DNA of 63,143 bases, the filler included, from Folioceros fuciformis (taxonomy: Eukaryota), in assembly GCA_049999805.1 (NCBI GenBank). It is 11 parts of 11 records of this genome, joined end to end, with 100 filler letters (N's around TTAATTAATTAA, not from the genome) between each part and the next. Parts side by side here need not be neighbours in the genome. Positions count along the whole stretch, not along the records: positions 11,275 to 15,531 come from JBNGIO010006489.1; 10 more parts are not named here. One strand, written 5' to 3'. Below the pieces are notes generated by a model. That model was given only the letters and a program-made list of their open reading frames with translations, did no database searches and was not told the DNA's origin. Below are positions 962 to 47,793 of this stretch, one piece after another. The position numbers and the translations under genes are program-made. Within the stretch, counting starts at the first letter, position 1. Each line of letters begins with the position of its first letter.

Positions 962-964
962 TTT

Positions 965-3900
965 TTGAGTGATCAGGAGAGTTCTTACACAACACCTGAA
1001 TGGTTGAGGAAACTGGCGCTAGAGGGAGAGCTCTATGACTTCAGTGAGGATGATGAGGTCTTGAACACTCAGGTTGATACTGCTTCTGATCGTGCCTCAG
1101 TAAACACACATTATTCACACGAAGATTATAAGTGGTACAGGAATTTAAATATGGATGATGATGACAGAGCAAGAGAGGAGATGCTCACTGCCCTGCAGGC
1201 ACTAACCAGCGGTGGTTTCAAAGAGAAGGACCGTCTGGTCACAGGCAGTGAATACGATATCTGGGTCATGCGAATGCAAGGAGCTCTTGAGGAAAAGAAC
1301 CTGTGGGGAGTGGTGATCGGAGAGACCCCAAAGCCTGAAGCCACTTCAGCAGATTATGCAGTATGGAGACTAGCAGACATCAAAGCCAGGAATCTCATCA
1401 GGTCAGGTCTGGCTCCTGAAATGCTGAGGCAGGCCTCTGATGGTCCAGGGGACTCAGCAAAGGACATGTGGGATCATCTGGCAATGATGTTTGCCTCTCA
1501 TGACATGGCTGCGTCCATGTCAGCTTCCGCACGGTATCATGGCCTGCGCATGACAGAAGGAGAGTCAGTTGAGCACTATATTGCAAGATTTCGCATTGCA
1601 CGTGCTAAGCTAAGCTCCACAGGCGTAAAGGTGACTGATTACGATGCAGCATGTAGGCTGTTAAGCTCGTTACCTCCAAGTTTCGGGCCGTTTGTTACTG
1701 GCCAGCAGGCTATGGCAAAGGTCGAAGCAAGAATCTCAAAGGCCTTAAAAATAGATTCAGATCCCATGACATTTAACGGTGTCGTTGGCGCTATGTTGCA
1801 GGAGGAAGCCACGAGGCTGTCCTCCAGATCTGGAAGACAGCTGATACAGGGTCAGCAAGCCCTGTTTGCTAGTAGGGGAAGACCCTTCAAAAGAGGCAGA
1901 GGAGGTTCATGGAATTCCAATCGTGGAGGCAGGTCAAGTGGACCTGGACAGAGTTCAAGCAATCCGAAACGTGCAGGCAATTGCAACTGGTGCGGAATAC
2001 CTGGGCATTGGGCACGCGATTGCCGAAAGAAGAAGGCTGCAGAGCCTCGGAAGGAGGGTGCTACTGGAGTGCCTGAGGCACATGCTGTAAACGCTCCAAA
2101 GAAAAAACCTGCACAAGTTATTTTGACTGTGTGCCTTACCACCTCTGGGTCACGAACCCCAGATTGGTTTATCGATTCAGGCGCCTCCGCACACATATGT
2201 CACAGTAAGTCGTACTTCAGCGATTATGTAACATATGATGCAGATCAGTCGGTGATGTTGGGAGACGAGAGTACATTACCTATTGTTGGAACTGGTAAGG
2301 TTATATTGCAGTTGCATCATGGTCGGTGCCTGGAGCTGGATGGTGTTCTGCATGTTCCTGCAGTCACCAAAAATCTGCTGTCAGTACGAAAGCTCACGGC
2401 TGATCAGCCTATGCATGTTCTGTTCACGGGAGATAAGTGCATGATAGTTGAAAGCAAGGATCCACGTGTGGCAGTTGCAGAAGGGTATCCTGTAAACGAT
2501 ATCTATCAGTTGAGTTTGGTGGGAAGCAGGTTACCTGAACTGCACGTTGCTGGCCTTGCTGGTCACTTGTCTCCGGAGGAAGTGGCGACTGTCTGGCATT
2601 TGCGTTGTGGGCATCCACATGGGAACAAGCTTCAGGCCATGACAAACAGTACGCTTTACTCAGATGGGATTCCAGGACAAGTGGGGGATTTGCCCCTGTG
2701 CGAAGCTTGTATTTATGGCAAGCATCATGAGCTACCTTTTGACAAGTCTGGAGCACATCGGGCTGCTGTTCCCTTGGAGCTTGTGCACTCGGATATTTGC
2801 GGTCCCATCTCTGTACCTTCTTTTGGTGGAGGCTCGTTCTTTTTGACCTTTATCGATGACTGCACTCGCTATTGCATGCTGTATATTCTCAAGCATAAAA
2901 GTGACACCCTGCAGCATTTCAAGGAGTATTTGCAGTTAGTGGAACGCCATCATGGTCGCAGTCTGAGATGCCTAAGATCTGACAATGGTGGAGAATATAC
3001 CTCAGGGGAGTTCACAGCTTATTGTAGGAATCTTGGCATCCAACGACAGCTGACTGTACCGTACACTGCTCAACTCAATGGAGTAGCTGAGAAGAAGAAC
3101 CAGCTCCTTCAGGAGACAGCACGAGCCTTGCTCAAGCAAGCACGTCTGCCTCGGCATTACTGGGGTGAGGCAATCAACACTGCCAATTATTTATTGAACA
3201 GATTGCCCACTAGAGTGTTACCTGGTACTACACCGTTCGAGGCATGGTGGGGTCGTAAGCCATCTGTGCAGCACTTGAGGATATTTGGTTCACCTGCGTA
3301 TGCCTTTGTTCCAAAACCAAAGCGCAAGACCAAGCTGCATGACAGGGCCCAGAAATTAGTCTTCATTGGCTACACTGACGGGATCAAAGCGTACAAACTG
3401 TACGACCCTGTGTCCCGGGTTGTCAGCCATGCTAGGAGTGTGATCTTTGACGAGAAGAGTATACTGAAGCCATCAAGCTCAGACTTACCCATTGCTAGTA
3501 CGAGTCCTGGTGGTGTGGTGGCAGATCAGCTTGACAATGAGGAAGAAGATGTCGTTGAGTGGTCCTCTGCAGGAGAGTTTGCTGAACCTGGAGAGGCGGA
3601 AGTATCTTACTTTGAACAAAATGCTGAAACTCTCGCACCTGAATTTGGAGATGATGAAATGGACAGCACTCCTGTGGACGACCCTGGACTGAATCAGCAA
3701 GCTGAAGCTGATAGTCAAGCTGAATTTTTTATGCATGCTGATGCAGAACGTGAAATACCCATCGCTGAGGAGGTTCCTGCAGTAGAAACACGAGGTCGTT
3801 ATAATCTCAGAGAGAGGAATAAACCGTGGAAAGAGCCTCCATTGGAGATGGAGGATTGGCGGGTGAAGAAGGTCAAAACGAAAAAGACCAGATCTGAGGG

Positions 3901-5629
3901 TGAACCTGCGACCTCTGAACAACCTGCCTCGACTGGCCAGCCTGCAGGAGATCTGCCAAGTAGCAGTGCTGAAATTGAGGGATACTCTCAGCTCTCAAAT
4001 GCGTACATCCAAGCCATGCTGGCAGCCACCACGGATGGTTCTGAACCTGTCTCATTGACACAAGCATACTCAGGACCTGAGGCTAAGCAATGGAAGAGAG
4101 CTGTAGATGATGAATATGCATCAATTATCCAGAATGGTACCTGGCTGTTGGTGGAGCTGCCAAAGGGACGCAAGCCCATCTCATGCAAGTGGGTCTTTAA
4201 AAGAAAAATGAATGCAGATGGCAGTATTAAGAGGTACAAAGCACGCTTGGTTGCTCGAGGGTTTTCACAGATCCCAGGAGTGGACTTCAATGATACTTTT
4301 GCTCCAGTTGTCAAGTTCACAACTTTGAGAATGGTGCTAGCACTTACGGCACACCTTGACCTCGACTTGGAACAGATGGATGTAAAGACTGCTTTCCTGC
4401 ATGGGAAACTGGAGGAAGACTTGTACATGGAGCAGCCAGAGGGCTACATCAAGCCTGGAACAGAACACTTGGTGTGTAAGTTGGTGAAAACCCTGTATGG
4501 GTTAAAACAGAGTCCACGAGCTTGGAATCAACGCATAAATTCTTACCTGAAGCAGTTGGGGTTCAGGCAGGGTACAGCAGACCCTGGTCTGTATTTGATG
4601 ACTGAGGGAGATGCAGTCTTGATTTTATTGCTGTACGTGGATGACTTGGTCCTGGCAGCGACCAAGGGCAGGCATAGTTTGCTGCCGAAGGTGAAAGCAC
4701 TCCTGAGAAAGGAGTTTGAAATGACGGAACTGGGTAAACTAACGTGGTGCCTGGGAGTTGAGATTGCCAGAGACAGAAAAGTCAGAAGGCTGACCATTTG
4801 CCAGCATAAGTATGTGAGAGACAGCTTAAAGAAGTTCAATATGGAAAATGCAAATGGGTCAGCAACTCCCCTGGCTACTGGCGTTAAGCTTGCACGAAGC
4901 CAGAATCCGCTTACACCAGAAGAGGCAGAGGATATGGCCAGAACGCCGTACAGGCATGCAGTAGGAACTTTAATTTATCTTGCAAATGTGTCAAGACCAG
5001 ATATTGCCTTTTCTGTTAGCCTTGAGTCACAGTTCCTGGAGAACCCAACACCAGAACATTGGAGTCAGGTAAAAAGGACGTTTAGATACCTTAAGCAAAC
5101 TCCAACACACGGCATAGTCTATGAAGGAATGAAAGAGAAGTTGCTCACCTTGGAGGGATTTACAGATTCAGACTGGGCTTCAGACTTAGACAATAGAAAA
5201 TCCCTGTCAGCATATGTCTATTTGTTAGCAGGTGGCCCCATATCCTGGATGAGCAAGAAGCAAAACACAATCTCCACTTCAAGCACTGAAGCTGAATACA
5301 AGGCACTTACGGTAGCAGCAAAAGAGGCCATCTGGTGCAGGAGAAACTTATCTGATGTGGGTATGGTGCAGGTTGGAGCAACTGTGGTTCACTGTGACAA
5401 CCAGGGAGCGATTGCACTCTCACAAAATCCAGTGCTTCATTCAAAGACTAAACACATAGAAATCCACCACCATTTCATAAGAGAAGTGGTGGCAGATGGT
5501 CAAATGAGAATTCAGTACATTCCTACAGCAGATAATCCTGCTGATCTACTGACGAAGGCCCTGCCGAAGGAACTGCACAACAAACATGCAAGTAGACTAG
5601 GTCTTCAGCCCTGCAAAAATGATCAGTAA
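965..5629 (+). CDS. Copia Gag-Pol polyprotein (first ATG at 1151)
   Basis: Zn knuckle CNWCGIPGHWARDC, protease WFIDSGAS, WHLRCGH, integrase VHSDICGP/RSDNGGEY, RT YKARLVARG/QMDVKTAFLHG/LYVDDL, RNase H FTDSDWA/TEAEY/NPADLLTK, in copia order PR-IN-RT-RH. Confidence 0.97.
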   Translation: MSDQESSYTTPEWLRKLALEGELYDFSEDDEVLNTQVDTASDRASVNTHYSHEDYKWYRNLNMDDDDRAREEMLTALQALTSGGFKEKDRLVTGSEYDIWVMRMQGALEEKNLWGVVIGETPKPEATSADYAVWRLADIKARNLIRSGLAPEMLRQASDGPGDSAKDMWDHLAMMFASHDMAASMSASARYHGLRMTEGESVEHYIARFRIARAKLSSTGVKVTDYDAACRLLSSLPPSFGPFVTGQQAMAKVEARISKALKIDSDPMTFNGVVGAMLQEEATRLSSRSGRQLIQGQQALFASRGRPFKRGRGGSWNSNRGGRSSGPGQSSSNPKRAGNCNWCGIPGHWARDCRKKKAAEPRKEGATGVPEAHAVNAPKKKPAQVILTVCLTTSGSRTPDWFIDSGASAHICHSKSYFSDYVTYDADQSVMLGDESTLPIVGTGKVILQLHHGRCLELDGVLHVPAVTKNLLSVRKLTADQPMHVLFTGDKCMIVESKDPRVAVAEGYPVNDIYQLSLVGSRLPELHVAGLAGHLSPEEVATVWHLRCGHPHGNKLQAMTNSTLYSDGIPGQVGDLPLCEACIYGKHHELPFDKSGAHRAAVPLELVHSDICGPISVPSFGGGSFFLTFIDDCTRYCMLYILKHKSDTLQHFKEYLQLVERHHGRSLRCLRSDNGGEYTSGEFTAYCRNLGIQRQLTVPYTAQLNGVAEKKNQLLQETARALLKQARLPRHYWGEAINTANYLLNRLPTRVLPGTTPFEAWWGRKPSVQHLRIFGSPAYAFVPKPKRKTKLHDRAQKLVFIGYTDGIKAYKLYDPVSRVVSHARSVIFDEKSILKPSSSDLPIASTSPGGVVADQLDNEEEDVVEWSSAGEFAEPGEAEVSYFEQNAETLAPEFGDDEMDSTPVDDPGLNQQAEADSQAEFFMHADAEREIPIAEEVPAVETRGRYNLRERNKPWKEPPLEMEDWRVKKVKTKKTRSEGEPATSEQPASTGQPAGDLPSSSAEIEGYSQLSNAYIQAMLAATTDGSEPVSLTQAYSGPEAKQWKRAVDDEYASIIQNGTWLLVELPKGRKPISCKWVFKRKMNADGSIKRYKARLVARGFSQIPGVDFNDTFAPVVKFTTLRMVLALTAHLDLDLEQMDVKTAFLHGKLEEDLYMEQPEGYIKPGTEHLVCKLVKTLYGLKQSPRAWNQRINSYLKQLGFRQGTADPGLYLMTEGDAVLILLLYVDDLVLAATKGRHSLLPKVKALLRKEFEMTELGKLTWCLGVEIARDRKVRRLTICQHKYVRDSLKKFNMENANGSATPLATGVKLARSQNPLTPEEAEDMARTPYRHAVGTLIYLANVSRPDIAFSVSLESQFLENPTPEHWSQVKRTFRYLKQTPTHGIVYEGMKEKLLTLEGFTDSDWASDLDNRKSLSAYVYLLAGGPISWMSKKQNTISTSSTEAEYKALTVAAKEAIWCRRNLSDVGMVQVGATVVHCDNQGAIALSQNPVLHSKTKHIEIHHHFIREVVADGQMRIQYIPTADNPADLLTKALPKELHNKHASRLGLQPCKNDQ

Positions 5630-5722: not shown

Positions 5723-5822
5723 NNNNNNNNNNNNNNNNNNNNNNNNNNNNNNNNNNNNNNNNNNNNTTAATTAATTAANNNNNNNNNNNNNNNNNNNNNN
5801 NNNNNNNNNNNNNNNNNNNNNN
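5723..5822. other. Artificial contig linker (first of ten; others at 11175, 15532, 21167, 26173, 29870, 43430, 47794, 56951, 60286)
   Basis: Identical 100-bp blocks of N with a central TTAATTAATTAA (stops in all six frames). Confidence 0.97.
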
Positions 5823-6935
5823 GTTGTTCCATCCCAAATCCAGCCATTCAAGGTTGCTGCAGTCGCCGATCTCGCCGGGAATCGACCCTTCCAATCCATC
5901 GAAACGACCTTTGTAGCCGTACCACTGTATGGCTAGCAGATTCTTTAACTGGCCAATGCTTGGTGGAATGTGACCCCTGAGTTGAGCGTTTCCTCCCAAG
6001 CCAAGAAGTTGCAAGCTAGAACAATTCCCTATAGATGCAGGGAGAGATCCGTTCAGGTTATTGAAGAAAAGTCCCAGTTGCTCCAGCTTTCTGAGATTGC
6101 CAAGCTCGGCAGGAATGGCCCCTTCAAGAGAATTATGACTTAACCACAGCGCAACAAGTTTTGTACAGTTTCCAAGCTCCCCTGGAATGGTCCCCGTCAG
6201 GCTGTTTTGCTGCAAAATCAAGTACTGCAGACGTTTGAGATTACCGAGAGCTTGTGGCAGACCGTCTTTAGCGCATGGGATGGGGCCTGTCAACTGGTTT
6301 CCGCCGAGATGCAAGATCTCCAGCTCGCTGCACTGCCCCAACGACCTTGGAATGGAACCGCTGAACATGTTGTTCGACAAATCAAGAACGACTAAGTTCT
6401 CTAGGGCTCCAAGTGCGGGAGGGATGGAACCGCTGAAAGTGTTGGTGGACAAATTAAGAGTGACCAAGTTCTGTAGGCCTCCAATCGCAGGATGGATGGA
6501 ACCGCTGAGCTGTAGCGCAGACAAATTCAAAGAAGCCACTGACCAAATACTGTTCGTGAAATGGCACTTGACACCGAGCCAATAGCAAGCAGCCCCAGTG
6601 TTATTCTCACTCCAGTCCACAAGGACATGGTTAGGATCGCTCGTGATGCCTCGCTTGAAATGCAGAAGAATGGACACCTCGGTTGCGTTCAAATTCATGG
6701 ACTGGTTGCCAGAGACATCTTGCAGCCGCCTTTCCCAGGTGGCACGGTGAGCAGTGCAACAGGACGTATGAACGTTGGCAAGTCTATTTGTGTGCTTGTG
6801 CGTGCCATTCCAACTATTCAGCTTGAACTGAGGTGACGACGCGAACGACGAAGCATAGCCTTCGGATCCTGCAGCGCGGACACCGAGATGCAGACACAAG
6901 AGCCCCACAACGAGAAGCACAGGCAGCAGCTCCAT
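5823..6935 (-). CDS. LRR receptor-like protein/kinase, 5' part (3' end lost in gap)
   Basis: Signal peptide MELLPVLLVVGLLCLHLGVRA, LRR N-cap (LVDWS...ACYWLGVKC), and about 9 plant-type LRRs LxxLxLSxNxFSGxIPxxLG. Confidence 0.92.
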
Positions 6936-7721
6936 GACCGGGAATCCTACAACGACAGTGGGTGTGGCCACTCAGCAAGGGTCCTCGGGGTGTCGGGGTT
7001 CTACGCGTCCCACAAAGAACAAGCCCTACAATGACGCAAAGAGCAACAGAGGCAACATTTCACGTGGCTGAAATCCAATCCATGCAGCCGATAGTTCATA
7101 CGGATATGACTTGATGGTCAAGCATAGGAACGATCCACGAATTCCCAGATGTGCATGTGTGTTCGGGCGGAAATTACTAGTCAATGAAGGTCTACACGTT
7201 TGTCCATCCTGACAGCTACGCAATGTTATAAAACGAGCCAACACTTCTATACAATACGCCATGCATGCAAAGCCAAGTTGTATATCAAACTTTTAGCCTT
7301 CTCTAACCATTATGTGGTGAGGGAGGTTCTACATAAATTTTGGCCTTGAATGCTATTGGTTTGGTTTGGTGGGGTAGGTTACATACACCTATTCTTTGTA
7401 TGGCTTTTAGACTAGCTCATTTTTTTTTTAAAATTATTTGTATTTAGTTTAATTTTATTTAAGCCTTATTTTAAATCTAGTATATAATAATTTAATATAT
7501 TATAGTACATCATTTTCAACACGACTTGTATATCATGAATTATACAATCCATAATGGAGTATGATACTATGGTCTAGCCATATAACCATCAAAACGTAGT
7601 TTGTTTTAATATATGTATATTTTTAATAGGTCTAGACTACTCAAACCCAAGAGTAAGAGTTGGCTTACACCATGACATACAAATGTTTAGATGCATGCAA
7701 CTTGATCTTGTTTGCGCCACT

Positions 7722-11174: not shown

Positions 11175-11274
11175 NNNNNNNNNNNNNNNNNNNNNNNNNN
11201 NNNNNNNNNNNNNNNNNNTTAATTAATTAANNNNNNNNNNNNNNNNNNNNNNNNNNNNNNNNNNNNNNNNNNNN

Positions 11275-11945
11275 ATCATGGCGCTCCACGTCACAACGTT
11301 CTTCTCCACGAGTCCATCAAAGACATGCCGAGCATCTTCTACGTTGCCACACCTTGCATACATGCTTATCAAACTATTGGCTACTGACACATCAGCCAAA
11401 TGTCCCTCTCCTCTGATTTGAGCATGAAGGTCTCTCCCCTTCTCTAAGGCCGGTGTGCCCACACTTGCACATGCCTGCAGGAGACATACAAATGTCACTG
11501 AATTTGGTACAGCGATGCCTTCTTCCTGCGTGACACTGTAGAGCTGAAGGGCATCCTGGCCCTTGCCCTGTTGGGAATACCCTGCAATTAGAGCAGTCCA
11601 CGTCACCACGTCTTTCTGGCCCATTTCACAAAACAATCTTTGGGCATCCTCAAGGCTGCCACACTTCGCATACATGTTCACTAAGCTATTGGCTACAGAC
11701 ACATTAGCCAGATGTCCTTGTGCTCTGATTAGCTCATGGAGCTGCTTCCCCGTCACCAGAGCAGGGGAGCCCACACTTACACATGCCTGCAGGAGGCACA
11801 GATAAGTCACAGAGCTGGGTACAGCCACCCCTCCTTCCAGCATAGCACTGTAGACAAGAAGTGCTTCCTGCCCCATGCCCTGTTGGGAGTACCCGGATAT
11901 CATGGTAGTCCACGTCACAACGTCCTTCTCAACGAGTCCGTCACA
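11275..11945 (-). CDS. PLS-class pentatricopeptide repeat protein (partial)
   Basis: Repeating KDVVTWTxxIxGYSQQG / VPNSVTFVCLLQAC / DVSVANSLISMYARCG motifs. Confidence 0.93.
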
Positions 11946-12189
11946 CCCACTTGGTATCCTCCAGGCCCGACAGGGCCAAGCTCGCCTGCCACGCCGCGAT
12001 ACAGGGAGCAGGAACGAGCAACAGAGGGATGCGCCAGGTATCGCCGAAGGCCCTTCCCCGAAACTCCTCCCCTTCCGTACCAGCACAAGGACGCGGGGGA
12101 CAACCAGTCCCTGCCATCCACCGAAAGACGCCGCATCTTCAGCTGCCGCGCATGTGGCACTTGCAGGCTCTGCTTCCACCACGGGTCGT

Positions 12190-12420
12190 CAAACAACACT
12201 CCTCAAGCACATTCCGTGCGGCTCCCTGATCTTCGTCAAGGCACCAGAGTTTGCAAAGACATTGAGAATGCACGCAGAAGTGCCATAGTCCGCCAAAATC
12301 AGGCCCTCCTGCTCCATTCTGTCCAGACAGAACAAACGTCCATACAGAACAGCCGAGGCCCTCCGTTGCATTCCCAGGAACCAGCGCATTCCATGCCACA
12401 CATTTCCCTGTCACCAGCCA
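12190..12420 (-). pseudogene. Frameshifted, degenerate PPR motifs upstream of the PPR ORF
   Basis: VAWNALVPGNATEGLG then, in another frame, DRMEQEGLILADYGTSACILNVFANSGALTKIREPHG. Confidence 0.65.
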
Positions 12421-12930
12421 TTCCATCGTTGGAAAGGTCACTGCATCCATGGACGTTACATCTACAACACTCGCTCGCGTTCCTTCAGCTTTCCGCCGTC
12501 CCTGGACTCTTTCCTCCGATTGAGGGTAGAGTCCCTGGCTGAATGAACGGTTGAGGGCAGCTGATCTGCACTGCACCTGGTTTGACCAGGATTCAAAACA
12601 AGCAGCTCTCCTCGGTTTGCAGTGCACTAAGTGCGAGAGTCAGTCCGTGCCTGGGTGCTCTCGAATTCAACAGCTTATCCTCAGCCACCAGAGCATCATA
12701 CCTTGCCAGTAGTACTGTCCGCAATGAAATTGTTCCACACTGCCTGACGTGCCCTTGTTCCACCTGAAAGCAAGCCGAAAGATCAAACCATGAACAAGCA
12801 ACACAAGGGCTGCAACAGTTCTTCAAACCAGGCAGATGCGCACGCTTTCCACTGCCTTACTTGTGTGGCACTGGCAAGCTCGCCAGGCTTGAAATGCACC
12901 TGACGCATTTCCGTCACCGGGCCGCTGGGA

Positions 12931-13515
12931 CTAAATCTGGTCTGCATCACGGCTTCGCACAATCAACCCCATCCTACTATTCCCTTCTGATGTAGTCATG
13001 GCATTAAATTTCCAGTCCCGAGGACTACCATGCACCATGATCGATCCGACACTCTTCCAGGCTTTGCTGCTAGTGGCAAGGTTGGCGGTGCCTGGACCCT
13101 GCGCTTTCACGCTTTTGGCAAGACTGCCAGTGTCTCGACAAACATTTATGACAACCACCTTAAGCTTGTTTGCCAAATTCCCGCATTCAGCGATGGGATT
13201 CCAAATAACTTCTTCAACATAAAGCTTCTCCGCCTTGTCTGCTTCACCTAAGCAAACATACTCTCTACCATCGTCTTCAGTCTCACCATGAGCATTAACG
13301 TAAAACAGAAAGAAATCGTCCTTATCGAAGTCAGGATGCCTGACAACGTGCTCCAACGTTGATTTCGCTTCCTTAAGATCGTCCACCACACAGGGGATCT
13401 CAAACTTCAAGGGCACACCACGGAGAAGAACGTCGAGTCGCCCTCTGTCTACCTGTCCTCCATCTCTGCCTTTTCCTATACTGACTGCAAGACCTCGCTG
13501 GTGACCTGCTTTCAC
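12931..13515 (-). CDS. Caspase-like cysteine protease (peptidase C14) domain
   Basis: RGLAVSIG, RDGGQVD..RL..LL...LKFEI, FFLFYVNAHG (His76) and NLANKLKVVVINVCR (Cys126), in caspase order and spacing. Confidence 0.8.
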   Translation of the reverse strand: MKAGHQRGLAVSIGKGRDGGQVDRGRLDVLLRGVPLKFEIPCVVDDLKEAKSTLEHVVRHPDFDKDDFFLFYVNAHGETEDDGREYVCLGEADKAEKLYVEEVIWNPIAECGNLANKLKVVVINVCRDTGSLAKSVKAQGPGTANLATSSKAWKSVGSIMVHGSPRDWKFNAMTTSEGNSRMGLIVRSRDADQI

Positions 13516-14340
13516 CCTTTCGTTTGGATATGATGGTTCCTTCCCTGACTTCAGTAGAGGCGGTCCCTGTGCCTGACTTTGGATACGCTGGTTCCTTCCC
13601 TCAGGTTCTCCACACTCAGTCCTGATGATCCCTTCTACTAGTTCAACTCCAGGACTACCTTCAAGAGAAGCACAAAATGCTGTCAGTTCCGCAACAAAAC
13701 TCTGTTGGAGAAATTCGATCGTTTTGTCTTTGCTCGAGTGACCTCATCAAAATGTCAACACGATCACCAATGTCCCCGTCTCCCCCCCAATATCCCCACT
13801 GCTCTCCAAAAATACGTCCAAAACATAGTAGTTAAATTTGATCAAGTTGCGTGCAATGCTATACAGATGACACTGCATACCCTGGAGTCCATTAAACAAG
13901 ATCTGTCGTAACTTGACCTGCAATGCACAACCACTGGCCATGTCATGAAAGCCAAAGAGAGCATACATCACTAGCGAAATGTCACAGACCTCAGAAGGTA
14001 AACGTACTTGGAATCTTGGAAAGAAGCCTGGACGACAATCGTCTTCGTTTATCTCGGCATTGTACCCACCTCTTTAAGTAGTTGTACTTGTGCACTGTAC
14101 CACCCTTCCAGTCTCTCGGCATTGTAGCCGCCTCCCTAAGTACGTGTACTTGTGCGCTGTATCACCCTTCCAGACCAACTGTCGTTTCCCTTGAAGGTCT
14201 TTACCTTCTTTTCCGTGTCATCCAAGGTGACGGGAACGAAGAATCCAGGGCTAGGATTCGCATCATCTTCATAGCACAAGTTTAGTCTCTTCATCGATAA
14301 TACGAGATCGTTCGCTTCCGTGCTTTTGAGGATCTGGTGA
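13516..14340 (-). pseudogene. TORNADO1-like Roco COR domain, multi-exon, with frame disruptions
   Basis: LVLSMKRLNLCYEDDANPSPGFFVPVTLDD, YLGRRLQCRE, PGFFPRFQ|VKLRQ (GT-AG intron 13918-14007), YSIARNLIKFNYYVLDVFLE, DRVDILMR, FCASLEGSPGVELVEGIIRTEC. Stops at 13744-13749 and a 62-bp duplication at 14052-14173. Confidence 0.75.
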
Positions 14341-15646
14341 CCTGGTCCAAGGTTGCGAGCTTGAGAAGCTTTTGAGGCAAAAGTTTTCTAAGCTGCTGCT
14401 TCCACCTTTCCTTCCCTCCCCCAAATGTCACCTGAGGACAGAACATGACTGTTGCAACACTGCACCTTGCAGGAGAGATGCCTTCCTTCACATGGAAGGT
14501 GGGTCTATGGACCGTAGGATCCCACCACCTGAGTTCTGCTCAGCTCAGCTAGGCTCCCAGCCCATTCATCGTCATCCCTTCCTTTGGACCTTTTTCCTCT
14601 GAATGAGACTGCCCGTTTGGGTTGCTTCAAATCCCACATACCTCGAAAATACACATCATGCCTGCCAAAGGAAGAAAAGTCAGATTGCGCATTCGAATGA
14701 GAAACAGTCTGTATGTCGTTCTGAATTGTGTGTGCATCAAAAGGTCTGCCTCCCGTTGTACTCAGGTTAGCTCAGCTATCGTAAACATAAAGGCGAGCAC
14801 GCTGAAGGATGTAGACGATTCGTCGGCAGAGCGCAGGGAAGGAGTACACAAACTAACAGCCACTACCCGTACAAACTATGTAATTCTCCCATTCACATAA
14901 ACTAACTATGCAATTATCCTATTCAGTGTGTGCCAAACAAGGAGAGAAACAACAGTCTCAAACCCTCAATTTGTGGACCCTGTCCGCCGAATGCTCCACG
15001 TAGAACGGGTCCTGTTCTGAATCAGCTCTCGTCCTCTCCACTTTCAGCCTGTTTGGAACCTTTCGTCCTGAGATTGTCTCTGGAAATGGTCGGGCGTAGA
15101 AGAAATTCCTTCTGCACCTCCGCATTTGAGCATGATATGATGCCATTGGCATTGCCCCGGTCATGAACTTATGTTAGCCGTCAGTGGAGGGGTCAGGTAC
15201 CCCATTGGAGCGGTAGCAGTGCAAGACAGGCCAGGACGAATGGGCCGTTCTGTTGGATGGCTGGCATCCATGTTCCACATCACCGCCCTACAAGAGCTCG
15301 AGTCACAACACAAAACAGCACTGTGCCTTCGGCCCGGTACATCAGTCAGAAGGAAAGGCAAGTTGGCTTGCTGACTGGCCCGGCTAATGAAACCTCTGCC
15401 TACCAATACCGAGATACGCCCCGTTCACAATGCAAAACGACGTTCTTGCCAAACAGGCACAGAGAGGGAGGCGACGTGAGAAGATCGGATCAGAAGCAGT
15501 TCGACACACCAACAAACAGGCAGTACAGTATNNNNNNNNNNNNNNNNNNNNNNNNNNNNNNNNNNNNNNNNNNNNTTAATTAATTAANNNNNNNNNNNNN
15601 NNNNNNNNNNNNNNNNNNNNNNNNNNNNNNNGCCACAACACCTGGT

Positions 15647-18600
15647 TTGCTTGTGGCCTGTTTGTCCTCTGTGTCCAAGAGTACAAATTGGTGGTTCTTA
15701 GACAGTGGAGCGTCTAACCACATGTGTTCCTCTAGAAAGTCCTTTGTGAATTATAAAGTAGCACCCTGTGAGCATGCTGTAGTGCTGGGAGATAATTCTC
15801 ACATACCTATTAAAGGTATAGGTTCAGTGACAGTCACCCTGCAAAATGGGAAGACATGGGAGTTAGAAAATGTACTCCATGTTCCAGCACTCAAGAAAAA
15901 CCTTGTAAGTACCATGGCCTTAGGAAAAACAGGTCGGTACAGAATTCTGTTTGAAGGTTTAGAGTGTGTTATCACAAGTGTGAGTTCACCCTCAGATGTT
16001 ATAGCCAGAGGCACTCCTTTGTATGATCTGTATGTTCTTGATTTTACCTCAGATGTTCAACCAAAAACAGTATATGTAGCTGAGTCTGCAGAGGATAAAA
16101 CAAAAATAGCATTTAGATGGCATTGTAGATTAGGCCATCCAAACATTAAGGCTATGAGGCGGTTGTTGAAGGACCACATGGTTACAGGTTTCTCGGAATC
16201 CAACCTACCAGATTTGGAGCTGTGCGTTGCATGTGTTCATGGGAAGCAGTTTAAATCACACTTTGGATCTGGAAAACCACGAAACAAGACAGAAGTGTTA
16301 GACTTGGTGCATTCAGATATTTGTGGTCCTATGTCAACACCAAGTTGGGGAGGAGCCAAGTATTTCGTTGTGTTTGAAGATGACACAACGCATTTCACTG
16401 TCACAGAGTTACTGAAGCACAAAGGAGATGTGTTTGACAGTTTTAAACGATATTTGGCTTACGCTGAGAGACAAACTGGACGCAAGCTGAAATGTATTCG
16501 TTCAGACAATGGGAAGGAGTACCTGTCATCAGCATTTCAAGAATACTGTCAGGAGCGTGGCATAACTCGACAGCTCACCATTCCTTATCATTCTGACATG
16601 AATGGCAGAGCAGAACGTCGACATCGTACTATACAAGATACAGCTAGAGCACTTCTGTTTCAGGGGAGGCTATCAACACGTTTCTGGGCTGAGGCAGTTC
16701 AAGTGGCTACTTATCTGCAGAATAGGATTGCAGTCTCTTCACTTCCCAATGTTACTCCCTTTGAAGCTTGGACAGGTGTGAAGCCTGATATTTCACATCT
16801 TCGTGTTTTTGGCAGTACAGCATATGCACATATACCAGATCAGCTTAGAACCAAATTTTCCTTTAAGTCTAAGCGGCATGTTTTCATTGGGTACACACCT
16901 GGTATTCATGGCTACAAATTGTTTGAGCCATTCTCCCGTAAAGTCATTCATGCACGAACAGTTGCTTTTGATGAGAGTTCAGTCCTTAAGCCTCCTTCTA
17001 CTGGTGGTGATTCTCCTGTTTCACATCCTGACATTGATGTTCAGTCCTCTTTAGATGGATTAGTGGACCTGGATGAAAAAGACCTTATAGATGTTGTGGA
17101 GTTTCCTACCTTTGATGCATCTGATGTTTCTGGTGATTTAGATCCAGGCCTTCATCCAGGTCCACCACCTGTTGTACCACCAGATCTTGCTGTTCCTGTT
17201 CCAACTGATCCTCCTCATGTTGCTGCTGAGGCTGACTCAGCATCTGACGATGACTCAGTGGCCCTTCCTCCTGATCCTCCTCCTGCAGCTGGTGAGCTAG
17301 ATGTAGATGATCCTGTAGAATATGTCCTCCCACCACAGCCAAGGAGATCAGCTAGGGTTCATAGAGGGCGAGATCAGTGGACTGAAAAACCATATGAGGC
17401 TGAAGACTGGCGTACCAGGAGAGTGCCTCGGGCAGTGGGAGTAGATCCTACTGCTGTTGTAGATGAGCTCGCCCATGTGTCTATTCAGCCTGGATATGAG
17501 CCTCAATCTTACCAAGAAGCTATCACGGGACCTGAATCTCGACATTGGATTGCCGCTATTACTTCTGAATATAACTCCCTTATACACAATCAGACTTGGG
17601 AGCTATGTCCCCCGCCTAAGGGGAGGAAAATCGTCAGCAGTAAATGGGTTTTCAAACTCAAATATAAAGCTGACGGTACTATAGCGAGGTACAAAGCTCG
17701 CCTGGTTGCCCGTGGTTTCTCTCAAGTGCCGGGGCTGGACTACAACGAAACTTTCTCCCCTGTGGTTAAGTCACAATCTCTGCGCGCCTTGTTTGCAATG
17801 TCAGCTTTCTTTGGCTTGTTCATTCATCATATGGACGTGAAGACAGCCTTTTTGCATGGAAAGCTTGAAGAAGAGATCTTCATGCAACAACCTGAAGGGT
17901 ATGAAGAACAAGGGCGTGAGGATTGGGTCTGCAAGTTACTGAAAACAATCTATGGCCTCAAACAGTCACCAAGAGCTTGGTACCAGGTTATAGATGAGTT
18001 TCTTCGTGATCTTGGCTTTAAGAAGAATTCTGCAGACTCGAATGTGTATCTCCTGCAACAAGAATCAGGTTATGTAGTGTTAGCTCTCTATGTTGACGAC
18101 TGCATTTTGCTTGGAACCGACCTAGACGGCATAAACAGGGTCAAAGGCCTCTTATCTGGAAGGTTTGATATGGTAGATGTTGGTGAGCTTTCGTATTGCC
18201 TTGGTACCCAACTCCTGCGAGATCAATCTAGTGGAACTCTTGTTATACATCAGGAGAAGTACATCTTTGATATGCTGTATAAGTATAAGCTCACAGAGGC
18301 TAAGCCTGCAGCAACACCTATGGAGGCAGGTCTTAAGCTCACTCTTGAACATTCTCCTGTGACTGAGTCCGAGAAACAGGAGATGGAGGGTGTGCCTTAT
18401 GCGCAGGCTGTTGGCTCACTTATCTTCTGTTCAAATAACACGAGGCCAGATATTGCTATGCCTGTCAGTATGACATCTCAGTTCTTAAAGCAGCCAGGAA
18501 GAATACACTGGTCAGCTGTTAAAAGAGTTTTGAGGTACCTGAAGGGTACAAGTAATCATGGTATACATTTCACAAAACAGCAGTATGAAGGTGAATCGCT

Positions 18601-19087
18601 TACATTGCTCGGGTATTGTGATGCCGACTGGGCTGCAAATTCTGACTCACGGAAGTCTGTCTCCGCTTATGTTTTCTTGCTGGCTGGAGGTGCTGTTACC
18701 TGGTCATCAAAGAAGCAAACGACAGTTTCGTTATCTTCAACCGAGTCAGAGTATTATGCTCTTACACAGGCAGCAAAGGAAGCCATATGGCTTCGAAGGT
18801 TGCTGAAGGATTTAGGGCAGGAGCAATTGCAGCCAACAACAATCTATTGTGACAGCACAGGTGCCTTGTCCCTGGTGGAAAATCCAGTTTTCCATGCAAG
18901 GACAAAACATATTGAAGTCCATCATCACTTTATCCGCGAGGCAGTGTCTTCTGGCCAGGTTCGTCTTGAGTATATTCCTACAGACTCAAATGCAGCAGAT
19001 GTCTTAACAAAGGCCTTGCCAAAGAGTAAACATTTGCAGTTTAAAGAAGCTTTAGGAGTCCTAGACTCCTCTTACCTTTCAAGTTGA
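15647..19087 (+). CDS. Copia Pol (PR-IN-RT-RNase H), 5'-partial
   Basis: WFLDSGAS, WHCRLGH, VHSDICGP, RSDNGKEY, YKARLVARG, LYVDDC, YCDADWA, NAADVLTK. Confidence 0.96.
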   Translation: MLVACLSSVSKSTNWWFLDSGASNHMCSSRKSFVNYKVAPCEHAVVLGDNSHIPIKGIGSVTVTLQNGKTWELENVLHVPALKKNLVSTMALGKTGRYRILFEGLECVITSVSSPSDVIARGTPLYDLYVLDFTSDVQPKTVYVAESAEDKTKIAFRWHCRLGHPNIKAMRRLLKDHMVTGFSESNLPDLELCVACVHGKQFKSHFGSGKPRNKTEVLDLVHSDICGPMSTPSWGGAKYFVVFEDDTTHFTVTELLKHKGDVFDSFKRYLAYAERQTGRKLKCIRSDNGKEYLSSAFQEYCQERGITRQLTIPYHSDMNGRAERRHRTIQDTARALLFQGRLSTRFWAEAVQVATYLQNRIAVSSLPNVTPFEAWTGVKPDISHLRVFGSTAYAHIPDQLRTKFSFKSKRHVFIGYTPGIHGYKLFEPFSRKVIHARTVAFDESSVLKPPSTGGDSPVSHPDIDVQSSLDGLVDLDEKDLIDVVEFPTFDASDVSGDLDPGLHPGPPPVVPPDLAVPVPTDPPHVAAEADSASDDDSVALPPDPPPAAGELDVDDPVEYVLPPQPRRSARVHRGRDQWTEKPYEAEDWRTRRVPRAVGVDPTAVVDELAHVSIQPGYEPQSYQEAITGPESRHWIAAITSEYNSLIHNQTWELCPPPKGRKIVSSKWVFKLKYKADGTIARYKARLVARGFSQVPGLDYNETFSPVVKSQSLRALFAMSAFFGLFIHHMDVKTAFLHGKLEEEIFMQQPEGYEEQGREDWVCKLLKTIYGLKQSPRAWYQVIDEFLRDLGFKKNSADSNVYLLQQESGYVVLALYVDDCILLGTDLDGINRVKGLLSGRFDMVDVGELSYCLGTQLLRDQSSGTLVIHQEKYIFDMLYKYKLTEAKPAATPMEAGLKLTLEHSPVTESEKQEMEGVPYAQAVGSLIFCSNNTRPDIAMPVSMTSQFLKQPGRIHWSAVKRVLRYLKGTSNHGIHFTKQQYEGESLTLLGYCDADWAANSDSRKSVSAYVFLLAGGAVTWSSKKQTTVSLSSTESEYYALTQAAKEAIWLRRLLKDLGQEQLQPTTIYCDSTGALSLVENPVFHARTKHIEVHHHFIREAVSSGQVRLEYIPTDSNAADVLTKALPKSKHLQFKEALGVLDSSYLSS

Positions 19088-28414: not shown

Positions 28415-29869
28415 TCATGTTTCGATGTAGGCAGAATAGTCACAGAGGCCAAGCCCCCGCATGTGAAGGTAATGGGGGTGCTTAGGCAAACCCTTTGTGA
28501 ATATATCTGCTGTATTTGAATCTGTACTAACGTGACTAACATTGATGATGCCCCTGGATACCAGATCTCGAATATAGTGATGGTGCACTTCGATGTGCTT
28601 CGTTCGGGCGTGGAAGGTTGGCTTGGATACTAGCTCCAGAGCTGAAGTGTTGTCACATAAAATAACTGTGGGCTCTGATTGTGGGTGGCCAAGATCCGTA
28701 AGGAAACTTCTTTCCCACTCTGCTTCTTTGGCTGCTTCAGTCAGCGATTTATATTCTGCTTTCGTGGAGCTGAGGGTAAAGGTGGATTGTTTTTTGCTGC
28801 TCCAGGTGACTGCTGCTGATGCCAGAAGGAAACAGTAAGACGAAATGCTGCGTCTGGAATCTGAATCCGAAGCCCAATCGGCATCTGAATAACCAGATAA
28901 GGTAAGCCGTTGGTCTCCGCTTCTTCTATACATTAGGCCATAGTTTGTTGTGCCCTGGAGATAACGAAAAATTCGTTTCACTGCTGTCCAGTGAACTCTC
29001 CCGGGACATTCAAGGAATTGGGATACAGTGCTAACAGAGTACTGTATGTCTGGCCGCGTCCAGTTGGCAACAAAGAGCAAGTTGCCCACTGCATGCCTGT
29101 ATGGTACACCTTCCATGTCTTTTAATTCATCTGGAGTCTGAGGACTTTGTTGACGGGTTAGTTTAGTGCCAACCGCATATGGAGTTGTAGCGGGTCTTGC
29201 CTGGTCTAAGTGAAATTTGCGTAGAATTTCAATGATGTACTTCCTCTGGTGTATGAACATGATCCCGGCGTCACGTACACGTAGAAGTTGAATGCCTAGG
29301 CAGTACCTCAACTCTCCGATGTCCTTCATGTCGAACCTCTGGTGTAGCTGTCTCTTTACGTCTGCTAACAGTGCGTGGTCATTTGTGGCAAGGATCAAAT
29401 CGTCGACGTATAGGGCAAGCAGCACAACAGAAGTCCCTCTCGTGAGCATGTATACATTTGTGTCGGCAGTGTTCTGAACGAAGTCAATACTTGTCAGGTA
29501 AACGTGCATTGTGAGGTACCATACCCTTCCACTTTGTTTCAGCCTGTAGATACATTTTAATAACCTAAGCACTTTATGTGGATGTGCAAGGTCTTCATAG
29601 CCTTCGGGCTGAAACATGTACAGTTCCTCATCAAGGACCCCGTACAAGAAAGCGGTGCATACGTCCATTTGCTCAAGATCAAGGTCGAACTCTGTGGCGT
29701 AAGCAAGGATGAGGCGGATGGACAGGCTGCGGACAACAGGTGAGAATGTTTCCTGGTAGTCCAGCCCTTCCACTTGAGTAAATCCCCTCGCCACGAGTCG
29801 TGCCTTGAACCTGGCCACTTCCCCTTTAGCATTAAGTTTTAATTTGAAGGTCCATTTGCAGGAAATGGC
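28415..29869 (-). CDS. Copia RT-RNase H (5'-partial)
   Basis: FKARLVARG, QMDVCTAFLYG, LYVDDL, YSDADWA, NTADIFTK. Confidence 0.95.
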   Translation of the reverse strand, partial: AISCKWTFKLKLNAKGEVARFKARLVARGFTQVEGLDYQETFSPVVRSLSIRLILAYATEFDLDLEQMDVCTAFLYGVLDEELYMFQPEGYEDLAHPHKVLRLLKCIYRLKQSGRVWYLTMHVYLTSIDFVQNTADTNVYMLTRGTSVVLLALYVDDLILATNDHALLADVKRQLHQRFDMKDIGELRYCLGIQLLRVRDAGIMFIHQRKYIIEILRKFHLDQARPATTPYAVGTKLTRQQSPQTPDELKDMEGVPYRHAVGNLLFVANWTRPDIQYSVSTVSQFLECPGRVHWTAVKRIFRYLQGTTNYGLMYRRSGDQRLTLSGYSDADWASDSDSRRSISSYCFLLASAAVTWSSKKQSTFTLSSTKAEYKSLTEAAKEAEWERSFLTDLGHPQSEPTVILCDNTSALELVSKPTFHARTKHIEVHHHYIRDLVSRGIINVSHVSTDSNTADIFTKGLPKHPHYLHMRGLGLCDYSAYIET

Positions 29870-30892
29870 NNNNNNNNNNNNNNNNNNNNNNNNNNNNNNN
29901 NNNNNNNNNNNNNTTAATTAATTAANNNNNNNNNNNNNNNNNNNNNNNNNNNNNNNNNNNNNNNNNNNNGCATATGCTAATATATATGTTTCCGAAATAA
30001 TCAACTTATCTAGCTTCGGGGCACGCCAAATTCGGGGGTGTTCGCGCTCCCTTCCTACTAGCTGAGAGGAGCGTATCTCCTTTGGCAAATACCTACCCTC
30101 GAATGCATTACCATTTTTTTTTATTCACCATTATATGACAAGGCAGGGGTCATTTGATGTGGTATCTACAGCTTGGACTTGGGCAACCCAAAATGGCTGA
30201 TTCTGCTAATCACCTTCACAAGGGATCGCGATCATATCACCCTCCTAGATTTTGGAAACATTGCCTTCCAACCTCGCTCCTTCCATTGCTGCAATTCTCG
30301 TTGGCCGATAGGGTCCGACGTACATATGCCTTCGCTCAGCAGACTAGTGTACTAAATCCCCTTCTTCTGGGACTGGATACGCCACCCCTTCCACACTAGG
30401 GGATGGCACATTCAATTTCCGGTCTTCTCCACTGAGAATTCGATGGGCGATATGTTCTTGTCACAACCAAAAGGACCACCAGCACTCCTTGTCTTTGGCG
30501 CTTAAATATGTTTTCATCAAATCTTCCAACAGCTTCCTGAACTATGCCAAACTATGTAGAGGATTGGGATCATGTTCCTTCCCGTGAATCTGCAGGCCCA
30601 ATAGGGGCACGCCAACAATTGGAGTTGCCCGAATTCTGTGGAAAAATTCCAAATCCTCCTATGGCTTCCATTGTCGAGACGTCGACAATGGCTTTCCACG
30701 GAGGATAGTAATCATCATGCCTCCACATCGCTCCTCTCGTGTTATTTTGAACTGATGTTGGTAACTATGATTATGTAAGTTGCAAATTGCTGCATCGTTC
30801 ATCCCTCGCTGGCCTGTTCCCTCTAGCCATACGTAGGCTCAAAAGTCCACCACCTCCATCACCATCTCCACCTCCGGATTGGGAGTGTACAC

Positions 30893-46600: not shown

Positions 46601-47793
46601 TCAAGGTATTGCTCAGCAATTCACGGTGGTTTATACCCCTCAGCAAAACGGCGTAGCAGAAAATAAGAATCTACGTCTTCAAGAGATAACAGGTTGCTTG
46701 CTTTCCCAAGCCCGGTTAGTTAAACCATATTGGGCAGAAGCAATGATAACGGCAACATATCTTCTCAATCGACTGCCCACCTCAGCAGTTCGGGGTATGA
46801 CACCTTATGAAGCATTCATTGGCAGAAAGCCTTCCATCGACCACCTTCGGGTTTTTGGCTGTACGGCATATGTTTATATTCCTAAAGCACAGCGTAAGAA
46901 GTTCGATGATAAGGCTGCCAAGTACACCTTTATTGGTCATACAGAAGGTATTAAAGGATACAAGTTATTTGATCCAGCTACAAGGAAACTCATTTATGCC
47001 CGCAGCGTTACTTTTCATGAGTCTCCACTCTTATCCCCAGTGGACTCCTACTCTTCTGTCTATGTTCCTGACGACAATATTGTACCCACATCTTTTGATG
47101 ATGATGAGTTTATCAGCATTCAATCTTTTCCTTCCTCTCCTCCAGTTGAACCTATTGTGCAGGAGGAGGAGGAGCCATCTTCTCCGCGACGACCTACTAC
47201 TCCAGATCCAGATCTGGAAATTCCTCAACACCTGGATGATATTTATGTGGTTCCGGATGATGAACTTCCCGAGCCTGACTATCCGGATATTGAGGAACTG
47301 GTTCCTTCATTACAAGAACCAGCACATGAAGATATTGTACACACAGAGAATCCAATCGTCGACGACGTAGAGCAACCTGCACCAAGGTACAACCTAAGGA
47401 CCAAGCCTGTTATTTCTGGCCCTGCAGGATGGAAGGAACCACCTTTAGGATACCTCACCACTTTTGATGATCCCTCCTCACCTTTCTCCCATTTTTATCA
47501 ATCTGTTTACAAAGCTACAATTGATCCTGAAGAGCCACTGACCCTTAAACAAGCTTTCACTTCTCCCGAGAAGGACTTATGGAAAGCTGCAGTGGACTCT
47601 GAGTATGATTCCCTAGTTAAGAATTCTACATGGGAATTAGTTAAACCACCCAAAGGGAGAAAAATCGTAGGGAGTAAATGGGTCTTTAAAATTAAACAAA
47701 AGGGTGATGGTTCCATTGAGAGATATAAGGCAAGACTAGTAGCCAGAGGTTTTACCCAGATACCGGGTTTAGATTACATACCCTGGGCTACTT
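43618..47793 (+). mobile_element. Ty1/copia element: PPT 43618-43626, LTR 43627-43888, PBS 43889-43900, leader ORF, disrupted gag-pol 44678-47793
   Basis: LTR with perfect 8-bp terminal IR TGATGAAA/TTTCATCA, internal ~16-bp GGTTACAACCACTTAT repeats and TATATAAA; gag FKEKDRFNGKNY, WYLDSGAT, VHTDICGP, RSDNGGEF, YKARLVARG. Confidence 0.93.
44092..44667 (+). CDS. Extra leader ORF (191 aa) immediately upstream of gag
   Basis: ATG-initiated, RRRPRIRKR basic patch, heptad segment; stops 10 nt before the gag ATG at 44678. Confidence 0.55.
   Translation: MDLIYFNRRRPRIRKRNCPARQQDQVRIKSNRSSQIIAREIDEISSRIANFIASILISKPDQGKLIKLARCDLLEVFSPIHVKALELAIQHIPNLRAGANASKFFCLQGQNIETHQIHDLDRELSSLTIQHLEFKRKLTELGVRVSNLSKFKDVQELSSRSSSPDAGYRAREEFRACNREDGKLYRRGLVL

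Follow-up and report, generated by a model that had tools for sequence, protein, structure and literature searches.

A probable decayed COR-B–caspase gene in Folioceros fuciformis and a bryophyte family of caspase-type proteins

Introduction

Do land plants possess proteases of the animal caspase type, or only metacaspases? The question is raised by a locus in the assembly GCA_049999805.1 of Folioceros fuciformis, of which a stretch of 63,143 bases (here called the window) was analysed. On the minus strand of the window, positions 12934-14184 are probably the degenerate remains of a paralogue whose parent gene combined COR-B, which forms the C-terminal half of the COR ('C-terminal of Roc') domain, with a caspase-like domain of the C14A type. 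As judged from sequence comparisons and structural models, this paralogue would belong to a small bryophyte family whose intact members retain both the p20 and p10 halves of the domain and are fused to switch or sensor modules. Caspases are stated to be restricted to animals, with plants having metacaspases only, in the available parts of PMC5756287, PMC9104976, PMC12521494, PMC13272413, PMC13170818 and 10.1101/2023.04.28.538660.

A caspase-type domain on the minus strand

Rather than being one piece of a chromosome, the window is a pseudo-scaffold into which unplaced contigs of 1-13 kb have been joined. Ten N44-TTAATTAATTAA-N44 linkers (at 5723-5822, 11175-11274, 15532-15631 and seven more positions), each a stop in all six frames, join the contigs, and adjacency across them is therefore meaningless; one N100 run and two N10 runs are also present. 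The contig at 11275-15531 carries, from 12934 to 13743 of the minus strand, a stop-to-stop open frame of 270 amino acids (P0001), which ends at a stop codon at 12931-12933 and matches the Pfam family Peptidase_C14 (PF00656) with an E value of 3.4e-8 (33.9 bits, cut-off 21.4) over residues 92-213, corresponding to profile positions 18-142 of 233. The frame contains R-x-G-x3-D at residues 93-99 (13447-13467), with the arginine of the S1 pocket, Arg93, at 13465-13467; His152 in the context NAHG (13288-13290); Cys202 in INVCRD, that is, in an NVCRD context (13138-13140); and DWKFNAMTTSEGNSR at residues 243-257. Positions R93, G95, D99, R100, H152 and G153 are those that are invariant in the family described below. 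In animal caspases, the histidine lies in SHG and the cysteine in a QACxG context.

The preliminary description of this DNA had reported a protease domain at 12931-13515 with signatures of metazoan caspases rather than metacaspases. The feature is real, but it lies on the minus strand, its frame runs on to 13743, and COR-B homology extends it to 14184. All the strings then listed, QRGLAVSIGKGRDGGQVDRGRLDVLL...LKFEI, FFLFYVNAHG, NLANKLKVVVINVCRD and SIMVHGSPRDWKFNAMTTSEGNSR, were recovered by translating the minus strand of 12931-13743, with the histidine and cysteine 50 residues apart as described, and the agreement of motifs in P0001, taken at the level of sequence, is far beyond chance. Of the p10-like segment that had been proposed, the first strand is present and nothing more of p10 survives. 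The replacement of the S1 glutamine by asparagine was likewise confirmed, asparagine occupying this position in the family too. The second S1 arginine, described as not evident, turned out to be invariant in the family (R181 of P0006, a relative used for modelling), and in the window it may survive as the R of EGNSR.

A hidden Markov model (HMM) built from 19 relatives scored P0001 at 107.5 bits over residues 7-215. In an AlphaFold2 model of P0001, the mean predicted local distance difference test score (pLDDT) was 61, with values of 70-87 in the p20 part, and the best structural matches of the model were caspase large subunits: among the 50 matches listed, ranks 1 to 14 were caspases or c-FLIP (Z 14.2-10.4), followed by MALT1 (10.1), Yca1 (9.9) and AtMC4 (9.2). 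Searched singly, P0001 gave no phmmer match in the PDB at E<=10, and a search for homologues of similar length returned nothing at E<=0.001 among 757 candidates. Since P0001 alone is too degenerate, profiles of its relatives were used for the comparisons below. The nearest clusters in a protein atlas were mixed and serve as leads only: Parabasalia (0.94, with no common Pfam family), Bacteroidota (0.93, with C14 in 17% of members) and mollusc caspase-3-like proteins (0.93).

Probable degeneration of the window copy

The COR-B-like segment (Table 1) matched the Riccia sorocarpa protein P0002 with an E value of 7e-15 and 30% identity over 193 columns, including 55 gaps, and is in the same frame as the caspase domain. 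Three in-frame stops interrupt the locus, one at 14074-14076 and a tandem TGA TGA at 13744-13749, and two tandem duplications were found, one within COR-B and one in the linker. At 13777-13712, four of five homologues aligned in frame 0 in frame-wise local alignments (scores 22-31). The 350-position HMM of the family matched the contig at positions 15-204 only, and the p10 half (positions 205-350) was found in no frame of 11275-15531. Two strings in downstream frames, 'SAWFEELLQ' and 'YYWQG', faintly resemble the p10 motifs GT-x-F-x-Q-x-L and LYW and are accompanied by splice-like sites; they were dropped as p10 candidates, the family HMM giving nothing significant there. Upstream of 14184, a tblastn search with four Roc-COR units (E<=20) gave nothing convincing for Roc or COR-A as far as 15531, and no NB-ARC or leucine-rich repeat (LRR) domain was found on the contig by Pfam.

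Table 1. Coordinates of features in the window
Feature	Position	Strand	Basis or remark
Caspase p20 (large-subunit) half	13105-13470	-	PF00656, residues 92-213 of P0001; Arg93, His152, Cys202
Remnant of first p10 strand and of S-x-R loop (DWKFNAMTTSEGNSR)	12973-13017	-	Alignment A1; frame stops at 12931-12933, no p10 beyond
COR-B-like segment	13606-14184	-	tblastn with Riccia P0002
62-nt tandem duplication in COR-B	14043-14166	-	81% identity; period not a multiple of three
Frame-shifted interval holding TGA TGA	13735-13777	-	Frame-wise local alignments to homologues
Duplicated linker motif GKEPSYPN, 55-nt spacing	13523-13601	-	Repeat search; upstream copy in another frame
Contig carrying the caspase-type domain	11275-15531		4257 bases, N44-TTAATTAATTAA-N44 linker on either side; only usable context
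PLS-type pentatricopeptide repeat (PPR) open reading frame	11277-12188	-	Pfam PPR_2 E 4.3e-37, PPR E 5.4e-33; 312-nt internal repeats
Ty1/copia frames	962-5629, 15584-19087, 46122-47849	+	gag/integrase/RVT_2
Ty1/copia frames	28415-29917, 32810-35719	-	gag/integrase/RVT_2

Contigs assembled from sequencing runs indicated that the region is present in many diverged copies. In run X1, 1187 contigs matched, 148 at >=99%, 294 at 95-99% and 745 at 90-95% identity; three runs from two studies of the same organism covered all 30 bins, mostly with diverged contigs; and up to 8-11 different contigs, differing by indels of 1, 2, 6 and 7 nt, were found per site, with no matching contig spanning the whole region. 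Among the 40 variant sites listed (237 more were present), 17 lay inside the open frame, at codon positions 1, 2 and 3 in one, 11 and five cases, respectively, that is, with no third-position excess. In run X3, which is only guessed to be RNA, the summed depth over 13121-13830 exceeded that of the flanks, a difference that is not usable as evidence of expression. From its sequence, the window copy is probably a non-functional pseudogene fragment, and we interpret it as belonging to a family with many copies, of which it is one that has decayed.

A different kind of variant was also observed: in contigs of all three runs, 13290 is connected to 14568 through 23 unrelated letters, so that 13291-14567 is missing. 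By its sequence, this variant is a paralogue without COR-B and the N-terminal half of p20.

Instead of being a pseudogene, the window copy might be an intact and expressed COR-caspase gene, its lesions being indel errors of the assembly or its p10 half lying in exons beyond the contig. The domain does sit on a 4.3-kb piece of a linker-joined pseudo-scaffold, the catalytic histidine and cysteine and the first S1 arginine are kept, and sites resembling canonical splice sites were seen by eye downstream, near 12862 and 12764. Moreover, insertions of +2 at 13735 and +1 at 13777, exactly at the edges of the shifted interval, are present in paralogue contigs and would restore the frame; however, these insertion-bearing contigs are 90-95% paralogues and represent other loci. 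The lesions are independent and of several kinds (duplications of 62 and 55 nt, three stops and the loss of about 145 HMM positions), the variant sites lack a third-position bias, and the 1.6 kb downstream holds no p10 and passes into PPR-like sequence, so that an intact gene appears unlikely.

Relatives in mosses, liverworts and hornworts

A phmmer search with P0001 of 1.84 billion representative proteins (threshold E<=1e-3) yielded 11 proteins, nine with a C14 domain, which is full-length (profile positions 1-233) in most of them, and two that match only the N-terminal COR part. The latter, KAL3698066 of Riccia sorocarpa (P0002, 2397 amino acids) and P0011, align with residues 4-47 of P0001 and are LRR-Roc-COR proteins by Pfam (Roc and COR-A). 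P0002 has an unusual double ROCO organization in its own right, with two successive LRR-Roc-COR units followed by a C-terminal alpha/beta-hydrolase.

The named sources of C14-bearing members include Marchantia polymorpha, with PTQ31690 and the paralogues Mp6g00860, Mp6g00900 and MARPO_0052s0114 (several assemblies, chromosome 6); Ceratodon purpureus, with KC19_5G008800 (two isolates, chromosome 5); and transcripts of Nothoceros aenigmaticus. The family spans, by sequence, all three bryophyte groups, mosses, liverworts and hornworts, in addition to the Folioceros contig. The Marchantia members are automatically named 'Caspase family p20 domain-containing protein' in databases; because of this label, the sequences are to be regarded as already public, though apparently undiscussed.

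In a profile search of a set of 5.8 billion proteins, in which 7999 candidates were scored at a threshold of E<=1e-10, 29 proteins were found: two from named plants (Nothoceros and Ceratodon), eight from named animals, one of which (P0035) was counted through a Holothuria cluster member, and 19 without a name. The named animal matches included oyster (Magallana) caspase-6-like (1e-59) and vertebrate CASP6 (about 1e-38), as well as caspase-8 and caspase-3, and none of the 29 was named as bacterial or fungal. When the two best motifs of the family were searched against 185,579 prokaryote genomes, 54 pattern matches were obtained, none of which was confirmed as a relative.

Conserved residues and domain architectures

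Two profiles of the family were prepared: A1, of 10 sequences including P0009, which is of uncertain origin, and A3, of 16 rows with P0009 left out. All 16 rows of A3 share R37, H95, G96, S179 and R181 (numbering of P0006), with C141 and R142 nearly invariant, and HMMER aligned R37, H95-G96, C141-R142 and S179-x-R181 to RRG, SHG, QACRG and SHR of caspase-6. The contexts in the family are (A/G)HG and N-A-C-R-G, with asparagine at the S1 glutamine position; two animal caspases (P0035 and P0045) also have asparagine before the catalytic cysteine. We take R37, H95, C141 and R181 to be the counterparts of Arg179, His237, Cys285 and Arg341 of caspase-1, with asparagine at the position of Gln283.

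The caspase-type domain was found in several architectures. In the Ceratodon protein P0030, C14 (30-241) is followed by NB-ARC (308-549), LRR (about 700-880) and Arm (1011-1048). In Marchantia P0007 (807 amino acids), two SERAC1-like alpha/beta-hydrolase domains, matching the C-terminal hydrolase of Riccia P0002 at 4e-25 and 2e-20, precede C14, while a COR-B tail precedes the caspase domain in hornwort transcripts, in two Logan proteins and in the window copy. Judged by sequence, these proteins seem to draw on a single set of exchangeable modules, comprising caspase, hydrolase, Roc-COR and NB-ARC-LRR. One member differs at the active site: in P0004 (427 amino acids, from a Logan assembly), the context of the catalytic cysteine is replaced by VISGHGS whereas the histidine and the S1 arginine are kept, and P0004 may be a pseudo-protease within the family.

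Plant NLRs, receptors with nucleotide-binding and leucine-rich repeat domains, often carry integrated decoy domains, and the caspase domain of the family could be such a decoy, or a scaffold pseudo-enzyme, that serves as a target of effectors or as an aid to assembly rather than as an executioner. The lack of a catalytic cysteine in P0004 would fit this role, as would the close structural match to the pseudo-enzyme c-FLIP (Z 22.2). However, the 16 rows of A3 agree without exception in the histidine, the glycine, the two S1 arginines and the S-x-R loop, and nearly so in the cysteine, the pattern expected of an active enzyme, and in Ceratodon the caspase domain is N-terminal, the position of the executioner in plant NLRs according to the available part of PMC11218826. 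We consider a decoy or scaffold role decidedly unlikely and infer, from the architectures of the family, that its caspase domain would act as an executioner.

Phylogenetic position and probable plant origin

An unrooted tree of 36 domain rows separated the plant rows and the window copy from the animal and unknown rows at 85/97. For a rooted tree, the partial row P0047 was left out, and two 'caspase family' proteins of bacteria, taken from plasmids of Shinella and Sinorhizobium, served as the outgroup. In this tree, the 19 plant rows and the window copy formed a clade at 90/94, present in 90% of bootstrap trees, and the sampled animal caspase-3/6/8 rows, together with two unknown rows, formed their own clade at 90/67. 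With the two-bacterium root, the plant clade lay outside the sampled caspase-3/6/8 clade, the deep forks being at 72/70-76. Three other proteins, P0009, P0041 and P0042 (from NCBI, JGI and ENA records), are caspase-like with I-N-x-C-R-G and S-W-R motifs; they joined the plant side weakly (72/70-76) and could mark further non-animal caspase lineages.

The domain might alternatively be animal DNA, acquired through contamination of the assembly or by recent transfer from an invertebrate, as the nearest named proteins outside the family are the animal caspases found in the profile search, and some animal caspases (P0035 and P0045) share the asparagine before the catalytic cysteine. The preliminary description had named a chimeric or contaminant contig as an outcome that would speak against its reading. 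The window is indeed an artificial join, but the domain's own piece of 4257 bases also holds, on the same strand, a PLS-type PPR open reading frame, which by its sequence marks the contig as plant DNA, and a COR-B tail that matches Riccia, hornwort and other family members; because both features are present, an animal contaminant is unlikely. In addition, the region is multi-copy in three runs from two studies of one organism, Marchantia and Ceratodon have chromosomal homologues in independent assemblies, one of them fused to a plant-type NB-ARC-LRR, and in the tree the plant rows group together, separately from the animal clade sampled. Taken with these data, an animal origin of the domain, whether by contamination or by recent transfer, is very improbable.

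Similarity to caspases rather than metacaspases or paracaspases

Searched against the PDB, profile A1 gave caspase-6 with an E value of 4.6e-38 over p20 and p10, with only caspases in the 60 matches listed of 238. As P0009 in A1 was later found to score like an animal caspase, the search was repeated with A3, which gave caspase-6 (6.4e-39), caspase-7 (2.5e-37) and caspase-3 (about 1e-34), again with only caspases in the 60 listed of 244. Marchantia P0007 alone matched caspase-6 and caspase-8 at 3e-10 to 1e-7 (only caspases in the 60 listed of 139), a result that is independent of plant labels. The family shares with the animal effector caspases caspase-6, -7 and -3 (C14A) this match over the full p20 and p10 profile (6e-39 to 1e-34) and the motifs R-x-G-x3-D, (A/S)HG, GKPK-x-F-x-I-x-x-C-R-G, S-x-R and G-T/S-x-F-x-Q-x-L, but differs from them in having asparagine for glutamine before the cysteine, in occurring in land plants as a separate clade (90/94), and in being fused to NB-ARC-LRR, hydrolase or COR-B instead of CARD or DED.

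The model of P0006 (pLDDT 83, predicted template modelling score 0.85), a protein 65% identical to that of Ceratodon, was compared with 48,161 PDB representatives. The best matches were caspase-9 (Z 27.2) and caspase-8/3 entries (27.1), for which 215-225 residues aligned at Z 27 with 24-26% identity, followed by Sf-caspase-1 (25.1), caspase-4 (23.7), CED-3 (23.5), Dronc (23.3) and c-FLIP; MALT1 (22.0 and 19.2) ranked below eight caspase or c-FLIP entries, and AtMC4 (19.0), GSU0716 (18.2), AtMC9 (17.9), Yca1 (15.3) and TbMCA2 (12.5) scored lower still. Identity was 16-26% for caspases, 15-16% for MALT1 and 10-15% for metacaspases. A caspase fold with p20 and p10 halves is thus present in the family, as modelled in P0006, of which the window copy keeps p20 and one p10 strand. 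A homodimer prediction for P0006 scored 0.00, a value that was obtained without controls and gives no evidence either way.

Metacaspases have either a type I prodomain (an LSD1 zinc finger or a proline-rich segment) or a type II long linker, an acidic S1 pocket, and the cysteine in D-x-C-H-S. In the family, Pfam detected only C14 together with COR, NB-ARC or hydrolase domains, the cysteine lies in N-A-C-R-G, and arginine occupies S1. Paracaspases carry Death and Ig domains beside the caspase-like domain and are specific for arginine; no Death or Ig domain was found by Pfam in 10 relatives. AtMC4, AtMC9 and MALT1 (C14B) have the caspase-hemoglobinase fold and a His-Cys dyad in common with the family, but the structural scores of the family to them were lower, at 14-16% identity, and no C14B protein was among the PDB matches listed. 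Metacaspases and MALT1 cleave after arginine or lysine and have acidic pockets, whereas the S1 residues of the family are basic.

Although PF00656 spans all these C14 groups, the NCBIfam model of the bacterial 'caspase, EACC1-associated type' gives a weak match (14.3 bits, cut-off 140; E 0.021) and the tree holds no paracaspase or metacaspase sequences, convergence of caspase-like motifs in a divergent metacaspase, paracaspase or bacterial-type orthocaspase is scarcely credible, because the full-length profile similarity to caspases (E about 1e-39) is far above the level of motifs, structure and identity both rank caspases first, then MALT1 and then metacaspases, basic residues occupy the S1 positions, just as they do in caspases, none of the 185,579 prokaryote genomes searched with the two best motifs gave a confirmed relative, and two bacterial caspase-family proteins scored only 45 and 20 bits against a plant-and-animal HMM whereas named animal caspases scored 118-162 bits against a plant-only HMM, the two sets of scores being from different HMMs.

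The preliminary description's proposal of an unusual C14 lineage in a plant, caspase-like and not metacaspase, is therefore supported and extended to a bryophyte family. It had named three outcomes that would speak against such a lineage, no predicted C14 fold, nesting within ordinary plant metacaspases, and a chimeric or contaminant contig. All three were checked and none spoke against it: caspases were the top structural matches of the P0001 and P0006 models; by profile and by structural ranking the sequences did not fall with plant metacaspases, the family profiles matching only caspases among the PDB rows listed; and an animal contaminant is unlikely.

Several points weigh against our interpretation of the locus as a decayed member of a bryophyte caspase family. 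No contig at >=99% identity covers the broken sites, whose indels and stops could be assembly errors, and for this reason assembly error stays a rival. Of the 19 rows treated as plant, just four (P0007, P0030, P0013 and P0023) come with the name of an organism; the remaining 15, from Logan, JGI and ENA, were assigned to plants by similarity to P0006 (47-87% identity) or by the COR tail, and profile A3 contains just one named sequence. The tree includes no initiator or inflammatory caspases (caspase-1/2/9), no paracaspases and no metacaspases, its root consists of two bacterial plasmid proteins, the plant clade is not starred, and the window row, which sits on a long branch (1.98), is in no starred set. 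Not all members of the family are enzymes, as P0004 lacks the catalytic cysteine. Finally, a search for homologues of 789-2250 amino acids returned only P0030 and no Roc-COR-caspase protein, although, since it also missed the 807-residue P0007, this search is weak evidence against such fusions.

Possible role and significance

Homology, fold, conserved residues and architectures are the grounds for recognizing the family, whereas activation by proximity, acidic P1 specificity and a role in immunity are conjectures drawn from them. In intact members, the NTPase or COR module might gather caspase domains, as Apaf-1 or the NLRs of inflammasomes do for animal caspases; once the switch module has assembled, the gathered domains could then, to judge from the architecture, become active through their proximity; and the activated protease would cut after an acidic residue, leading to immune signalling or cell death. 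In both the Apaf-1/caspase-9 apoptosome and the NLR inflammasome with caspase-1, an NTPase sensor is likewise coupled to a caspase, an analogy that suggests induced proximity, but in Ceratodon the caspase is in the same polypeptide as NB-ARC-LRR and is not recruited through CARD. Among ROCO proteins (LRRK2, DAPK1, plant TORNADO1-like proteins and Riccia KAL3698066), the COR-B of the window is similar to the COR of the LRR-Roc-COR protein from Riccia; however, the contig has COR-B only, and Roc followed immediately by COR-A and COR-B was not found there.

Atypical enzymatic domains are likewise found at the N-terminus of the hydrolase-NLRs and kinase-NLRs of bryophytes (Chia et al. 2024, PMC11218826), and, according to the available part of that paper, the hydrolase N-terminal domains of bryophyte NLRs trigger cell death in N. 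benthamiana. The Marchantia caspase protein shares its alpha/beta-hydrolase type with these hydrolase-NLRs. In the available main text of PMC11218826, 'caspase' occurs solely in 'caspase recruitment domains', with no class of caspase N-terminal domains. No caspase domain of a plant is mentioned in the accessible parts of the main texts of PMC11218826, PMC12512272, PMC8195603, PMC7159879, PMC7145615 and PMC11906373, and no description of these genes was found in full-text literature searches, nor any paper in searches with five gene identifiers of the family; supplementary NLR catalogues, for example that of PMC11218826, might list such domains.

Judged by sequences and models, the family represents a land-plant lineage of the caspase type that shows new fusions of domains, and its intact bryophyte members question the textbook view of plants without caspases. 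A plant family resembling caspase-6/7/3, with both S1 arginines and an NB-ARC-LRR fusion, provides a concrete object on which the question of caspases in plants can be tested, and as Marchantia and Ceratodon are transformable models, activity, specificity and function in cell death are directly measurable. The family also extends the enzyme classes at the N-terminus of bryophyte NLRs by a new one and ties ROCO, NLR, hydrolase and caspase modules into one domain-shuffling network. The Folioceros locus itself is chiefly a pointer to the family and evidence of its expansion and decay in another plant genome. Tentatively, and with more doubt than confidence, the sequences might be taken further to suggest that bryophytes keep, and early land plants had, Asp/Glu-directed C14A caspases built into NLR or ROCO sensors, a one-polypeptide 'apoptosome' that was lost in seed plants. 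If such true plant caspases in sensors exist, caspase-based immune cell death would not be an invention of animals, and the long-sought enzyme class behind the 'caspase-like' activity of plants would exist at least in non-seed plants.

Other features of the window

On the contig of the caspase-type domain, the 3' end of the PPR open reading frame is cut by the linker, and the PPR-like frames upstream of it, to about 12450, look degenerate. The summed contig depth over the PPR frame was 2400-4000 in the runs, about 10 times that over the rest of the contig, as expected because PPR is a very large family. On other contigs of the window, we observed Ty1/copia polyprotein frames (gag, integrase and RVT_2; Table 1), some of them long and open. 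In addition, positions 5778-6971 of the minus strand encode a fragment of an LRR protein of plant type, capped at its N-terminus by LRRNT_2, which resembles the ectodomain of a receptor-like protein or kinase.

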